Of a DNA stretch of 42,159 bases, positions 4,195 through 42,089 are shown one piece after another. This DNA comes from an uncultured bacterium (GTDB lineage Bacteria; Fidelibacterota; Marinisomatia; Marinisomatales; UBA2128). The DNA lies in NCBI GenBank assembly GCA_964534955.1, contig CAZHRR010000004.1, positions 1 to 42,159 of the forward strand, read 5' to 3'. Every line of letters begins with the position of its first letter. The first letter of the stretch is position 1. Made by a program: the position numbers and the translations under genes. The notes below the pieces were generated by a model, which saw nothing but the letters and a program-made list of their open reading frames with translations, was not told the DNA's origin and searched no databases.

Positions 4195-4255
4195 GCCTGC
4201 CCGCTCCTCTGCCAGCCCTCATTCTTCGGGAGCAGACGGGAACGTCTGCCTTTTT
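4195..4255 (+). repeat. GCCTGCCC-family palindromic element (long B-like variant) ending in a GC hairpin plus T-run
   Basis: GCCTGCCCGCTCCTCT...TTCTTCGGGAGCAG aligns with the element at 42034-42063. GCAGACG-ggaa-CGTCTGC (4232-4249) is followed by TTTTT. Confidence 0.45.
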
Positions 4256-4419
4256 ATTGTTGATTTCTTTCAACCCAGCCCTGTGCACAGCATCCTGTGG
4301 AAAGGACTGGGCTACGGAAAATTCCCTGCAAACAAAAATGATTGACTGGACAACTAAAGATTCTCTGTACATAGCCGTCATTTACTAGGTTATGGAAAAG
4401 TGCTCATGCTTATCAATAG

Positions 4420-4439
4420 CCTAGTCCTTAAGGGCTAGG
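4420..4439. repeat. hairpin CCTAGTCC-ttaa-GGGCTAGG
   Basis: 8 bp stem with one G-T pair, located downstream of the transposase stop. Confidence 0.35.
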
Positions 4440-4463: not shown

Positions 4464-4479
4464 ACGCCGTTCACGGCGT
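4464..4479 (-). repeat. CGTGAACG-loop hairpin (ACGCCG-tgaa-CGGCGT on the minus strand) containing the transposase stop codon
   Basis: Perfect 6 bp stem. The TGA stop (4471-4473) of the transposase lies in the loop. Confidence 0.5.
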
Positions 4480-4962
4480 TATTCCGTGATGTTTCAATAA
4501 CCTGTTTAATTCTTCTTTATAGCTAATCTTTCTATGGTGTTCTTCCCCGCCTGACCGGGTAACCAGTCGGGCAGGCTGATTACGAATATACCGTCTGACT
4601 TTGTCCACTTGAGATTCCAAAACAGAAAAAACGGAAAAACCCCTTTGCCATATGAATTTACCGCGAATAAAGTTATTTGAATTAATCCAATGAGATGATT
4701 CGCCTTTTATTAAATTAGCAATATCAGATGGTGCTTGTGTTGGTTTTAGTCCTGCGAGTAAATGTACGTGTTCCATCTCACCGTAAACTGTATCTACATA
4801 AATACTGTTTTCTTCACCATATTCTTTGAAATGTAATATCAGGTTTTGGTTTAATTCTTTAGTAATAATTCTTTCCCGTTTTTTCGTTGACCAAACAAAG
4901 TGCATCCCCGCCTGCTCCCGACAAAGGAGGGCGGGCAGGCAGATTTTATGATAGGTTTGCAT
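4471..4962 (-). CDS. IS200/IS605-family Y1 (HUH) transposase, RAYT-like, carrying two in-frame palindromic-element insertions
   Basis: FVWSTKKR, HUH motif HVHLL, WQRGFSVFSV and the catalytic-Tyr region RRYIRNQ...HHRK are all present. The segments CLPALLCREQAG and PARLVTRSGG are encoded by GCCTGCCC-family elements. Confidence 0.75.
   Translation of the reverse strand: MQTYHKICLPALLCREQAGMHFVWSTKKRERIITKELNQNLILHFKEYGEENSIYVDTVYGEMEHVHLLAGLKPTQAPSDIANLIKGESSHWINSNNFIRGKFIWQRGFSVFSVLESQVDKVRRYIRNQPARLVTRSGGEEHHRKISYKEELNRLLKHHGITP
4546..4575 (-). repeat. type A GCCTGCCC element, 30 nt, inserted in frame in the transposase gene
   Basis: Minus strand CCTGCCCGACTGGTTACCCGGTCAGGCGGG aligns with GCCTGCCCGAACTGTTGTCCAGTCAGGCGGGC at 42004-42035. 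It splits YIRNQ from EEHHRK. Confidence 0.7.
4906..4941 (-). repeat. type B GCCTGCCC element, 36 nt, in frame near the transposase N-terminus
   Basis: Minus strand TGCCTGCCCGCCCTCCTTTGTCGGGAGCAGGCGGGG aligns with GCCTGCCCACCCTCCTTCGTCGGGAGCAGG at 42034-42063. Confidence 0.65.
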
Positions 4963-4982
4963 AGTTATTTACCTCATTGATA

Positions 4983-5043
4983 AGGGCGTGAACGCCCTCA
5001 CTATTTAGGGTGATTTCTCTAATCCCAGCCGTGAACGGCTGGG
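4983..5043 (+). repeat. two CGTGAACG-loop hairpins (AGGGCG-tgaa-CGCCCT at 4983-4998; CCCAGCCG-tgaa-CGGCTGGG at 5024-5043)
   Basis: Perfect stems of 6 and 8 bp with an identical loop and closing pair but different stem sequences. They sit upstream of the transposase, in inverted orientation relative to 4464-4479. Confidence 0.5.
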
Positions 5044-5153
5044 TTATGGAAAAATCTCTCCACACTGACGATAGCGATTGGATTGATAAAAATTGTTTGG
5101 GTTGATTATCTGTTTGAACCTCATAAGTTTTTCATATGCGGAACATGAGTCAT

Positions 5154-6847: not shown

Positions 6848-6880
6848 AAAGATGACATCTTTGCCAAAGATGTCATCTTT
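6848..6880. promoter_or_regulatory. perfect 15 bp inverted repeat made of two tandem palindromes, 30 nt upstream of hutU (operator or terminator candidate)
   Basis: AAAGATGACATCTTT-gcc-AAAGATGTCATCTTT followed by TT. Each arm is itself a 7-1-7 palindrome. Confidence 0.35.
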
Positions 6881-6916: not shown

Positions 6917-6964
6917 CCGCCCGCCCAACGCTGTACGTGACGGGCAGGCAGTTAGCAGCCTGCC
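6917..6964 (-). repeat. GCCTGCCC-family element (type C) plus an adjacent GGCAGGC/GCCTGCC hairpin
   Basis: Minus strand GCCTGCCCGTCACGTACAGCGTTGGGCGGGCGG. GGCAGGC (6943-6949) pairs with GCCTGCC (6958-6964). Confidence 0.45.
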
Positions 6965-24864: not shown

Positions 24865-26055
24865 TTACTCCACGATGCCTGTTACCACACCGGCACCGAC
24901 CGTATGCCCTCCTTCACGAATGGCGAACCGGAGATTCTCTTCCATAGCGATGTTTGTGATTAATTCCACATTCAGATTTACATTATCACCTGGCATCACC
25001 ATCTCCGTACCCTCCGGAAGGGTCACAACACCTGTCACATCCGTCGTACGGAAGTAGAACTGAGGACGATAGCCGTTGAAAAACGGTGTGTGACGCCCAC
25101 CCTCTTCCTTCTTCAGAATATATACTTCCGCCTTGAACTTCGTGTGAGGTGTAATACTTCCCGGCTTTGCAACCACCATACCGCGCTTCAGCCACTCCTT
25201 GTCGATACCTCTAAGAAGTAAACCGGCATTGTCGCCAGCCTGACCTTCGTCCAGCTCCTTCCGGAACATCTCCACTCCGGTCACCACTGTCTTCTCATGT
25301 TCTCCCAGGCCAACTATATCTACCTCATCTCCGACCTTCACAATACCGCGCTCTACTCGTCCGGTACCTACCGTACCACGGCCTGTAATGGAGAATACAT
25401 CCTCCACCGGCATCAAGAACGGCTTGTCAATATCTCGCTCCGGCTCTGGTATGTAGTTGTCGATGGCATCTACCAGCTCTCTAATACTTTGGGTCTTGTC
25501 TTCGTCATCCGGATTGTTCATAGCTTCCAGAGCACTCCCCTTGATAATAGGTATATCATCACCGGGGAATTCGTACTCACTCAAAAGCTCACGAAGCTCC
25601 AGCTCTACCAGCTCAATAAGCTCCGGATCGTCCACCTGGTCCGTCTTGTTCAGATAGACCACGATAGCCGGTACATTCACCTGACGAGCCAGAAGGACAT
25701 GCTCACGGGTCTGGGGCATGGGGCCGTCTGCCGCACTCACCACCAGAATGGCGCCATCCATCTGTGCCGCTCCGGTGATCATATTCTTGATATAGTCGGC
25801 ATGTCCGGGACAGTCAATGTGAGCGTAGTGACGGTTCTCCGTCTCATACTCCACATGTGCTGTCTGAATCGTAATACCGCGCTCACGCTCTTCAGGAGCG
25901 TTGTCAATACTGTCAAATGATCTGATCTCACTCAATCCGCGCTTGGACAGCATCATCGTCATGGCGGCTGTCAACGTAGTCTTGCCATGGTCAACGTGTC
26001 CTATCGTCCCAACATTCAAGTGGGGTTTAGTGCGCTCAAACTTTGCCTTTGCCAT
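24865..26055 (-). CDS. tuf: elongation factor Tu, copy 1 (str-operon copy)
   Basis: 396 aa with [18 protein letters not shown] and NKTD. The protein is identical to the ORF at 40645-41835. Confidence 0.98.
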
Positions 26056-39986: not shown

Positions 39987-40059
39987 ATGAGCGGTAAGAA
40001 TTTCCGAAGTGCGAAGCCTCCTGCGGAGATCATACGGAGAACCCTCAACCGCTGATTTT
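39987..40059 (-). pseudogene. degenerate tRNA-Trp 3' half (copy 3) with a 36 nt hairpin in the T-loop position
   Basis: Minus strand AAAATCAGCGGTTGAGGGTTC[36 nt, 40003-40038]AATTCTTACCGCTCAT aligns with AAAACCGGCGGTTGCGGGTTCAATTCCTGCCGCTCCT of tRNA-Trp. Confidence 0.55.
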
Positions 40060-40091
40060 GCCTGCCCGAACTGGTGTCCATTCAGGCGGGC
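40060..40091 (+). repeat. type A GCCTGCCC element
   Basis: GCCTGCCCGAACTGGTGTCCATTCAGGCGGGC, abutting the anticodon-loop end of the copy 3 remnant. Confidence 0.65.
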
Positions 40092-40160
40092 TTGTCCGTC
40101 ATTGCAGGTGAGGCAGGAATTTCCAAAGGATCCTGTGGAGAACCCGCAACCGCCGGTTTT

Positions 40161-40200
40161 GCCTGCCCGAACTGATGTCCAGTCAGGCGTGCCTGCCCGC
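40161..40200 (+). repeat. type A GCCTGCCC element with an extra terminal GCCTGCCCGC
   Basis: GCCTGCCCGAACTGATGTCCAGTCAGGCGTGCCTGCCCGC. It forms the 3' boundary (in tRNA orientation) of the insert in the outer tRNA. Its inverted partner CGGCAGGCAG is at 40320-40329. Confidence 0.65.
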
Positions 40201-40235
40201 CAATTAACTGTAGAATTATCTACCATAATTAATTG

Positions 40236-40308
40236 CAGGAGCGGCAGGAATTGAACCCGCAACCGCCGGTTTTGGAGACCGGTGCTCTACCAATTGAGCT
40301 ACGCTCCT
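40236..40308 (-). tRNA. trnW: tRNA-Trp (anticodon CCA), intact, no encoded CCA end
   Basis: AGGAGCG TA GCTC AATTGGTA GAGC A CCGGT CTCCAAA ACCGG CGGTT GCGGG TTCAATT CCTGC CGCTCCT G gives a full cloverleaf with discriminator G73. Confidence 0.93.
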
Positions 40309-40469
40309 AATTCCACTTTCGGCAGGCAGGGAGACCGGTGCTCTACTCCCGATTATAGTCGGGAAGCTACTCACCTATTTCCTCAATAAGCAGGCGGAGA
40401 AACCATTGTTTTACTCTCGACCTCCGTCGAGAAACTGCGTTCCTATCCAATATCTTTTCCACAACAGAC

Positions 40470-40644: not shown

Positions 40645-41835
40645 TTACTCCACGATACCTGTTACCACACCAGCACCGACCGTATGCCCTCCTTCACGAA
40701 TGGCGAACCGGAGATTCTCTTCCATAGCGATGTTTGTGATTAATTCCACATTCAGATTTACATTATCACCTGGCATCACCATCTCCGTACCCTCCGGAAG
40801 GGTCACAACACCTGTCACATCCGTCGTACGGAAGTAGAACTGAGGACGATAGCCGTTGAAAAACGGTGTGTGACGCCCACCCTCTTCCTTCTTCAGAATA
40901 TATACTTCCGCCTTGAACTTCGTGTGAGGTGTAATACTTCCCGGCTTTGCAACCACCATACCGCGCTTCAGCCACTCCTTGTCGATACCTCTAAGAAGTA
41001 AACCGGCATTGTCGCCAGCCTGACCTTCGTCCAGCTCCTTCCGGAACATCTCCACTCCGGTCACCACTGTCTTCTCATGTTCTCCCAGGCCAACTATATC
41101 TACCTCATCTCCGACCTTCACAATACCGCGCTCTACTCGTCCGGTACCTACCGTACCACGGCCTGTAATGGAGAATACATCCTCCACCGGCATCAAGAAC
41201 GGCTTGTCAATATCTCGCTCCGGCTCTGGTATGTAGTTGTCGATGGCATCTACCAGCTCTCTAATACTTTGGGTCTTGTCTTCGTCATCCGGATTGTTCA
41301 TAGCTTCCAGAGCACTCCCCTTGATAATAGGTATATCATCACCGGGGAATTCGTACTCACTCAAAAGCTCACGAAGCTCCAGCTCTACCAGCTCAATAAG
41401 CTCCGGATCGTCCACCTGGTCCGTCTTGTTCAGATAGACCACGATAGCCGGTACATTCACCTGACGAGCCAGAAGGACATGCTCACGGGTCTGGGGCATG
41501 GGGCCGTCTGCCGCACTCACCACCAGAATGGCGCCATCCATCTGTGCCGCTCCGGTGATCATATTCTTGATATAGTCGGCATGTCCGGGACAGTCAATGT
41601 GAGCGTAGTGACGGTTCTCCGTCTCATACTCCACATGTGCTGTCTGAATCGTAATACCGCGCTCACGCTCTTCAGGAGCGTTGTCAATACTGTCAAATGA
41701 TCTGATCTCACTCAATCCGCGCTTGGACAGCATCATCGTCATGGCGGCTGTCAACGTAGTCTTGCCATGGTCAACGTGTCCTATCGTCCCAACATTCAAG
41801 TGGGGTTTAGTGCGCTCAAACTTTGCCTTTGCCAT
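40645..41835 (-). CDS. tuf: elongation factor Tu, copy 2 (tRNA-linked copy)
   Basis: Protein identical to copy 1. The DNA differs at only two synonymous sites (40657, 40672). Confidence 0.98.
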
Positions 41836-41937: not shown

Positions 41938-41957
41938 ACAAGTTCCTTCATGCCTAG

Positions 41958-42003
41958 AGCGGCGGACGAGGCTTCCCGACTGATTCGGGACGACCCTCAG
42001 CTT
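41958..42003 (-). pseudogene. tRNA-Gly 3'-half remnant with a 17 nt hairpin replacing part of the T arm
   Basis: Minus strand AAGCTGAGGGTCG[TCCCGAATCAGTCGGGA]AGCCTCGTCCGCCGCT versus intact AAGCTGAGGGTCGCGAGTTCGAGCCTCGTCCGCCGCT at 42090-42126. Confidence 0.65.
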
Positions 42004-42077
42004 GCCTGCCCGAACTGTTGTCCAGTCAGGCGGGCCTGCCCACCCTCCTTCGTCGGGAGCAGGTGAGCCTACCCGCC
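42004..42077 (+). repeat. abutting type A and type B GCCTGCCC elements
   Basis: GCCTGCCCGAACTGTTGTCCAGTCAGGCGGGC (42004-42035) then GCCTGCCCACCCTCCTTCGTCGGGAGCAGG (42034-42063) plus TGAGCCTACCCGCC. Confidence 0.65.
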
Positions 42078-42089
42078 ATGTTCCATATG

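Follow-up and report, generated by a model that had tools for sequence, protein, structure and literature searches.

Short palindromic repeats that sit in frame within protein-coding genes have been described before, and the closest case concerns genes of the same general type as the one considered here. In tnpA(REP) genes, insertions of REPs (repetitive extragenic palindromic sequences) that keep the reading frame were called a 'unique feature' of subclass 2.4 and were read as tolerated peripheral loops (Quentin et al. 2018, PMC6006769). Intragenic REPs with GTAG or CGTC tags in many species, as well as the Rickettsia palindromic elements (RPEs), occur in frame in otherwise intact genes, sometimes two to a gene (Di Nocera et al. 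2013, PMC3733652, citing Ogata et al.). In the TnpA-Y1 classification, class 2 REP-associated tyrosine transposases (RAYTs) carry the tyrosine motif Y-x3-NP, and subclass 1.2 has the signature DH[IV]H, WQ and YIKNQKEHH; subclass 1.2 was characterized as IS200-related, low in copy number, devoid of insertion sequence (IS)-type ends and of REPs, and present in Cyanobacteria and Bacteroidetes (PMC6006769). Here we describe a gene for an IS200-like Y1 HUH protein of 163 amino acids (aa), at positions 4471..4962 on the minus strand of a 42,159-nucleotide (nt) stretch of a Marinimicrobia genome (contig CAZHRR010000004.1; the whole stretch is referred to as the window). The evidence supports the view that this gene carries two lineage-specific, in-frame insertions, each a member of a palindromic family dispersed through the window.

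The first insert, a type B hairpin element of 33 nt (4907..4939, minus strand), lies within the codon for Trp-8 at the junction tctg^gatg, and the second, a type A hairpin element of 30 nt (4546..4575, minus strand), lies between Q129 and E140 at tcag^gaag. Both lengths are defined against empty sites, aaaatctggatgcac and aatcaggaggaac respectively, in the contig of the closest homologue (locus L001, GCA_016784325.1, a Marinimicrobia metagenome-assembled genome, or MAG), in whose DNA both sites are unoccupied. The type B element splits the TGG codon of Trp-8, changing W8 to C and adding 11 aa; with the split codon included, codons 8-19 (4906-4941) encode CLPALLCREQAG. Codons 130-139 (4546-4575) encode PARLVTRSGG. 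Two protein alignments were made, one of 24 sequences and one of 115 (the window protein and 114 homologues), and none of the 114 homologues has a residue in the columns of either insert; an internal length excess is likewise absent from the best 80 metagenomic loci. The initial annotation, which was made from the letters of the window, had called an HUH transposase open reading frame (ORF) with two in-frame palindromic insertions. Translation of 4471-4962 on the minus strand reads exactly as it described, and the homologues, none with equivalent residues, together with the precise empty sites bear out the insertions. Its 30-nt type A element encoding PARLVTRSGG agrees with the empty site, and its 36-nt type B element at 4906-4941 is indeed in frame there, but the inserted DNA amounts to 33 nt with the Trp codon split around it.

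The relationship of the inserts to other copies in the window is close at the ends and looser in the middle. Of the 30 positions of the type A insert, 24 are identical in the copy at 42005, and the type B insert matches its counterpart at 42035-42067 in 29 of 33 (hand counts from alignment A3). An alignment 'nucleotide for nucleotide' with the dispersed copies, as had been claimed, thus holds for the termini, which are perfect, and not for the cores, which have diverged from the dispersed copies yet still fold as hairpins. As RNA, the type A insert folds at -20 kcal/mol (z = -4.5) and the type B hairpin is stable at -17 to -24 kcal/mol. When the two target sites in the ORF were inspected by eye, nothing convincing suggested that they lie within local hairpins. 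The transposase gene is the only gene in the window that carries an element.

Members of the family have the form CCTGCCCG...CAGGCGGG, with a variable, self-pairing core between the termini. The pattern GCCTGCCC-N8-30-CAGGCGGG has four matches in the window, with 0.00 expected from 100 shuffles; two are in the transposase ORF and two are beside tRNA genes (40060 and 42004). With looser scans, further copies appear at 4196, 40162 and 42035, as does a relative at 6920; all of these fold as hairpins, and eight copies in the 42 kb have at most one mismatch per terminus. The copy at 4196..4240 (plus strand) is a type B-like intergenic element of 45 nt, inserted at gggcgtg^aacg and defined by pattern scan, alignment and junction analysis. 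Two further type A elements of 30 nt are on the plus strand: one (40061..40090) abuts a displaced 3′ half of tRNA-Trp, and the other (40162..40191) adjoins a split tRNA-Trp gene, at ttttg^ beside its 3′ half. At 42005..42067 (plus strand) a type A element (42005-42034) and a type B element (42035-42067) lie end to end, and the pair abuts a displaced 3′ half of tRNA-Gly at cttg^. Searches of the window and 13 other loci against Rfam at gathering thresholds found only tRNAs, a literature search on the terminal sequences returned only irrelevant human and primer matches, and no type A or B element is present in the 8.4-8.5 kb available from each of the relatives with 88% hutU identity.

Eight elements can be delimited by comparison with an empty site or with an intact reference sequence. 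The left flank of these ends in TG in seven cases and AG in one, and the original right flanks, where preserved, begin with GA or AA. In addition to the two coding-sequence sites, the junctions read ttttg^gaga in the tRNA-Trp anticodon loop, cttg^gaag in the tRNA-Gly anticodon loop, cctg^aagg in the loop of the right-end hairpin of a Y1 unit (locus L130), and cgtg^aac in the loop of an upstream hairpin (window 4196 and, independently, locus L007). In this clade the junction rule is therefore WG^RA, mostly TG^RA, in all eight cases. Targets outside coding sequence are mostly the loops of other hairpins, namely tRNA anticodon loops and the end hairpins of Y1 units; the right-end hairpin is the host in L130 and at window 4284-4301, and the upstream hairpin hosts a type A-like element in L007. 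At a distant subclass 1.2 locus (L192/L193), a type A-like hairpin is nested at CTT^TAG in the loops of both flanking hairpins. The eight defined lengths (33, 30, 45, 30, 30, 30, 27 and 30 nt) are all multiples of three, and by hand reading the type A sequence is stop-free in three forward frames and one reverse frame. Because the elements are of length 3n and largely free of stops, insertion into a gene adds a peptide of 10-11 residues and keeps the frame without selection on each event. The family has the length and repetition of REPs (imperfect palindromes of 20-40 nt, repeated), and a GTAG or CGTC tag is absent from its termini, (G)CCTGCCCG and CAGGCGGG, on both strands.

Genes of the same Y1 family have been struck elsewhere in the clade. 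In the P0007 lineage (locus L002) a double element of 60 nt lies in frame towards the 3′ end of the Y1 gene, as seen on five contigs from several samples, and P0009 (L005) has a 32-nt element at the same place. The ratio of non-synonymous to synonymous substitution rates (dN/dS) in the insert-bearing P0007 lineage is 0.047, which suggests that insert-bearing Y1 genes can persist under strong constraint. A decayed Y1 gene copy (L129, 4310-4345) contains a different 25-nt palindrome, flanked by an AGAA duplication and lying 6 nt upstream of the position of the second window site; here the frame is broken. P0016 was considered as an independent insertion at the first site and was rejected, being merely a unit truncated at its 5′-end.

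The host protein belongs to TnpA-Y1 subclass 1.2, with the arrangement Y-x3-Q-x2-HH, and is not a classical class 2 RAYT. It matches PF01797 (Y1_Tnp) over residues 17-129 in a profile search (E 4.5e-26; 91.8 bits against a cut-off of 23) and NF033573, the NCBIfam equivalog for IS200/IS605 family transposases (76.5 bits against a cut-off of 55). Its landmarks are HVH at 65-67, WQ at 105-106, Y125, Q129 and HH at 142-143, so that the HUH motif (H65-V-H67) and the Y-x3-Q motif are both present. Set against the subclass 1.2 signature, the protein reads EHVH (with E for D in this clade), WQ and YIRNQ-[insert]-EEHH, and in place of the Y-x3-NP of RAYTs it has Y-I-R-N-Q. The core of its AlphaFold model has a predicted local distance difference test score (pLDDT) above 90, and the best matches of the model in the PDB are the TnpA proteins of ISDra2, IS608 and IS200 (E ~1e-7), with the E. 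coli RAYT 4ER8 weaker at 6.5e-4. The label 'RAYT-like' given by the initial annotation is accordingly right as to a transposase of the Y1 HUH type and wrong as to a class 2 RAYT. Only one copy of the Y1 gene is found in the window. A database search returned 353 homologues, of which the nearest (78-65% identity, or 89-75% without gaps) are 142 aa long and come from Candidatus Marinimicrobia MAGs and from marine or vent metagenomes. The ribosomal protein L2 encoded in the window has 88-89% identity with Marinimicrobia/Fidelibacterota MAGs, in line with the assignment of the genome to that phylum.

The gene lies in a conserved unit of ~640 bp with end hairpins, RTAG feet and terminal inverted repeats. 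On the minus strand, the left end (5024..5052) consists of TTCCATAA and then the hairpin CCCAGCCGTTCACGGCTGGG, which has a perfect 8-bp stem; the foot reads RTAG in relatives, and the end is conserved in the window and in L001, L131, L002, L005 and L007 (alignment A5). A second upstream hairpin, GAGGGCGTTCACGCCCTT, is at 4982..4999 (minus strand; A5), and it is the loop of this hairpin that holds the type A-like element in L007. Downstream, the hairpin AACGCCGTGAACGGCGT (4464..4480, minus strand) overlaps the stop codon and is invariant in eight loci (alignment A6), and the right end (4413..4439, minus strand), which repeats the left end in inverted orientation, is formed by the hairpin CCTAGCCCTTAAGGACTAGG and then CTATTGA; the pairing of its stem survives a double change from C:G to T:A relative to the consensus CCCAG...CTGGG. 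The consensus of the unit is TTCC-RTAG-CCCAGYCGTTYACGGCTGGG and then GAGGGCGTTYACGCCCTT upstream (A5), and AACGCCGTGAACGGCGT and then CCCAGCCCTGAAGGACTGGG-CTAYGGA downstream (A6), with the outermost 14 nt forming the inverted repeats. Similarity between loci ends at the unit ends, and the flanking genes vary from genome to genome. In two relatives whose hutU is 88% identical (L211 and L212), hutU and hutI are 13 nt apart, as against ~980 nt in the window, where the gap is filled by the Y1 unit, solo unit ends and hairpins. One such solo right-end hairpin (CCCAGCCCTG...AAGGACTGGGCTACGGAA) is at 4274..4319 (plus strand) and has an 18-nt mini-hairpin (4284-4301) in its loop.

These end structures contradict the published account of subclass 1.2 as lacking terminal structures and REPs, since conserved end hairpins are present in all members of the clade. 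More widely, a hairpin common to both flanks was found in 62 of the 66 subclass 1.2 loci with enough flank (among L131-L210); the stems vary and the loops are typically CTTYAG or TGAAC. In the window the RTAG-footed hairpins flank the gene in inverted orientation and occur only beside it, and they are a different family from the type A and B inserts. The implication of the initial annotation that a mobilizing enzyme had been hit by its own cargo is for this reason not demonstrated. Two features of the surrounding genes were noted in passing. Just past hutI is a PIN-domain gene (2198-2581), probably the toxin of a toxin-antitoxin pair. The segment 6819-9246 represents ~2.4 kb of extra DNA compared with L211, where GHL10 and hutU lie 55 nt apart, and contains a HAD-hydrolase gene, unannotated ORFs, a perfect 33-nt palindrome (6848-6880) and a hairpin element (6920-6948).

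The best explanation, to which we assign a probability of roughly 0.65, covers both the history of the locus and the way in which the elements would move. The ~640-bp IS200-like subclass 1.2 unit is inserted between hutU and hutI of a Marinimicrobia genome, and its gene has afterwards received two separate element copies, one of 33 nt in codon 8 and one of 30 nt between Q129 and E140. In this lineage the elements land at WG^RA, mostly TG^RA, with a preference for the single-stranded loops of other hairpins. They are putatively non-autonomous, REP-like single-strand DNA transposons, which a Y1 HUH enzyme would cut, rejoin and paste into TGRA sites in single-stranded DNA, much as IS200/IS605 elements move; the conserved termini with a self-pairing core, the short target, insertion into single-stranded loops and the association with a Y1 HUH gene all fit a non-autonomous element moved by such an enzyme. 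The resident subclass 1.2 protein is the obvious candidate for this role. The Y1 gene itself has been struck repeatedly, in at least five independent events in the clade, presumably because the gene and its hairpins are dispensable, lie near the enzyme and are often single-stranded. Judging from element termini that are still perfect, the window copy was probably struck recently.

Several observations weigh against this explanation. The unit's own hairpins, with CTTYAG or TGAAC loops, differ from the inserted family, and a tblastn search of all pattern-hit loci, within the DNA blocks examined, found no Y1 gene near the pattern-matched hairpins, which makes the link between enzyme and element circumstantial. 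In L001 and L131, the closest relatives, the unit is present without a type A or B element in the available sequence. Dispensable DNA may tolerate insertions, and this, not targeting, could account for the enrichment of elements at the Y1 unit. The WG^RA rule rests on eight junctions, of which those of the tRNA-Trp halves may represent one event, and the position of the G is ambiguous. W8, the near-invariant N60 and S115 have been altered to residues found in none of the 114 homologues, a pattern that fits incipient decay. Finally, dN/dS between the window gene and its nearest homologue, L001, is 0.12, a value that averages the whole branch and so cannot show selection since the insertions.

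The last two points bear on a rival reading, in which the gene is already a dead relic and its open frame is a by-product of 3n, stop-free elements, with no functional protein made. Frame retention needs no selection if, as found, all eight defined elements are multiples of three, those at non-coding sites included. The positions of the inserts are also unfavorable for the protein. With insert 1, a conserved Trp where strand beta-1 begins is replaced and the first seven residues of the protein are displaced (pLDDT 58-69). The second insert comes directly after Q129, presumably, by homology to IS608, the Gln that completes the metal site with the HUH histidines, and parts Y-x3-Q from the invariant HH; residues 133-143 are modelled as disordered (pLDDT <50), which makes activity doubtful. 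In the model of the insert-free protein P0002, the corresponding site is the junction of a helix, a kink and a short helix just after Q118. The altered residues W8, N60 and S115, the setting of the locus amid solo unit ends and other hairpin debris, and the decayed L129 copy, whose frame is shifted by a palindrome very close to the same site, point the same way.

Against the relic stand the intact ORF, with no stops or frameshifts over 492 nt, and the retention of all catalytic residues. Of the sites that 80% or more of homologues conserve, two are changed (N60Y and S115L), within the range of one to three seen in intact homologues, and the non-synonymous distance to the outgroup L002 (0.114) is like that of the intact L001 gene (0.123). 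The flanking hairpins of the unit are intact, one of them through a compensatory change, and the insert-bearing P0007 lineage is under strong constraint. On this showing, and with the dN/dS value given above, the gene is not the obvious pseudogene that the initial annotation had allowed for. A dead relic is a credible alternative that we nevertheless hold to be on the wrong side of even odds. If the product is made from M1, the model indicates a floppy N-terminal loop and a disordered loop at the catalytic helix, and the protein is probably weakened rather than fully active.

A second rival places the start of translation at an internal ATG (M20; 4903..4905, minus strand) directly after the type B element. 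Insert 1 would then belong to the untranslated leader, as a hairpin that may hold expression down, and insert 2 alone would be translated. In Pfam and NCBIfam alike the domain match starts at residues 17-19, purine runs contributed by the element (GGGAG/AGG) precede the ATG by 5-13 nt, and the hairpin is stable as RNA; in IS200, moreover, a leader hairpin limits translation. The N-terminal MQTYHKIW, however, is intact, in frame and present in 109 of 114 homologues, and the original ATG at 4962 retains an upstream GAGG box. We consider initiation at M20 rather doubtful. Still weaker is the proposal that the inserts go untranslated because they are removed from the mRNA in an intron-like manner or are bypassed by the ribosome, as happens with bypass elements in some yeast mitochondria. 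Such hairpins do occur in the D, anticodon and T loops of tRNAs, positions that recall those of introns in archaeal tRNAs, but the interrupted tRNA copies adjoin intact ones, as expected for dead genes; lengths of 3n and open frames suit read-through and are needless for splicing or bypass, and neither an Rfam family nor splicing machinery is indicated, which leaves this proposal highly improbable. A reading of the segments as something other than mobile DNA, be it ancestral loops, adaptive loops specific to the lineage or artefacts of assembly, is largely refuted: the exact allele is on one contig only, but the segments are missing from all the homologues and best loci compared, their DNA matches dispersed window copies, the empty sites are precise, and analogous inserts occur in independent assemblies and samples.

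The tRNA genes of the window show a number of further rearrangements. A second tRNA-Trp(CCA) gene (40100-40385, minus strand) is split inside the anticodon around an intact tRNA-Trp (40235-40308), so that its halves flank the intact gene together with hairpin elements. The 5′ half (~40339-40385) has a 19-nt hairpin in the D loop and the 3′ half (~40100-40156) an 18-nt hairpin in the T loop. When the hairpins are removed and the halves joined, ARAGORN finds a perfect tRNA-Trp, and the acceptor stem differs from that of the intact gene by two compensatory pair changes. A further displaced tRNA 3′ half is at ~39990-40056. In the region 41950-42089 a displaced tRNA-Gly 3′ half has tRNA-Thr on one side and, on the other, a tRNA-Gly(TCC) that continues past the edge of the window; the first base of the half falls exactly in the anticodon loop, a 17-nt hairpin replaces its T loop, and the type A and type B elements separate it from the intact tRNA-Gly gene. 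At least two further mini-hairpin families of 17-19 nt can be recognized, TCCCGA...TCGGGA and CACAG...CTGTG/TCCACAGG..., with copies at 4284-4301, 40347-40364, 41974-41990 and ~40113-40130 that are hosted by tRNA D or T loops and by the solo Y1-unit end hairpin. Elsewhere, two 396-aa ORFs (24865-26055 and 40645-41835) occupy the positions expected for duplicate tuf (EF-Tu) genes and have antisense ORFs of equal length, which suggests that this candidate pair is near-identical and kept so by gene conversion.

Hairpins with similar termini exist outside the clade. A contig scan with GCCTGCCCG-N13-18-CAGGCGGG gave matches that, among those listed, mostly represent chance in GC-rich genomes; also among the matches listed, low-GC genomes of several phyla have hairpins with the same termini, often nested in other hairpins and sometimes in long ORFs. 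By inspection, CCTGCCCG...CAGGCGGG hairpins lie in frame in housekeeping-type ORFs of Patescibacteria and Bacteroidota MAGs (L103 6215-6244, L128 6058-6090, L016 1655-1687, L078, L110, L051 and L038). A Patescibacteria RluD aligned with E. coli RluD (1QYU) has a clean 10-residue gap at the element, and a Saccharibacteria MurD has extra residues at its element. Other candidate hosts, identified by eye, are a PstS-like protein, RpoD, ribosomal protein L4 and a prolyl-peptidase-like protein, and among the encoded peptides PAR...GG or ARLP...GGQA is a recurring form. Because matching termini were imposed by the search pattern, common descent of these look-alikes is not shown. The TG^RA rule fails for the elements in other phyla, which restricts the junction claim to this clade, and a literature search on hairpin insertions in Patescibacteria returned nothing specific.

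A broader reading would take all of these as a widespread, undescribed class of coding-compatible hairpin mini-transposons of 27-45 nt (3n and mostly stop-free), pasted into single-stranded TGRA loops, lodged in frame in housekeeping proteins across Marinimicrobia, Bacteroidota and Patescibacteria, and moved by orphan subclass 1.2 enzymes. We regard this as speculative and improbable. A WG^RA target, a preference for loops and 3n length would together explain how such elements could invade genes without killing them. The window gene itself is a natural test case for the tolerance of a Y1 HUH enzyme to insertion beside its catalytic helix, and the conserved bounding hairpins lead to a revised view of subclass 1.2, whose proteins become candidates for biochemical assignment. 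For annotation, short GC-rich in-frame insertions inflate or distort protein predictions in MAGs.

Compared with known systems, the locus combines familiar parts in a different arrangement. An analogy, and only that, is offered by the mobile GC clusters of yeast mitochondrial genes, hairpins rich in GC that enter coding sequence in a genome richer in AT and favor a short target; these are organellar, eukaryotic and unrelated in sequence. With IS200/IS605 elements such as IS608 and ISDra2 (2VJV, 2XMA) the locus shares the Y1 HUH fold and elements defined by hairpins, and its WG^RA junctions and loop targets fit their insertion beside a short, specific sequence in single-stranded DNA; the elements here are single 30-nt hairpins without separate left and right ends. 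The E. coli TnpA-REP REPtron (4ER8) resembles the unit in having inverted RTAG-footed hairpins that flank a low-copy, domesticated-looking gene; it differs in that the protein here has Y-x3-Q and not Y-x3-NP, is nearer in fold to IS200 TnpA than to 4ER8, and is encoded by a unit found in differing contexts across genomes, like an insertion sequence. The likeness to Rickettsia RPEs is functional only, in that palindromes stand in frame in otherwise intact genes and add short peptides. Relative to RPEs and intragenic REPs, the elements here are 27-45 nt long, have no GTAG or CGTC tag, are probably unrelated in sequence and belong to a free-living marine phylum, and the only gene struck in this window is the transposase gene. 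The nearest precedent is subclass 2.4 tnpA(REP), where short palindromic repeats likewise enter a Y1 HUH gene and leave the frame undisturbed; the host there is a class 2 RAYT with Y-x3-NP and here a subclass 1.2 protein, and the inserts described here lie before beta-strand 1 and after Y-x3-Q and are unlike the hairpins that flank the gene. In-frame insertion of palindromes is thus an already published phenomenon, and what is new at this locus is the host subclass, the phylum, the untagged element family and the positions of the inserts.

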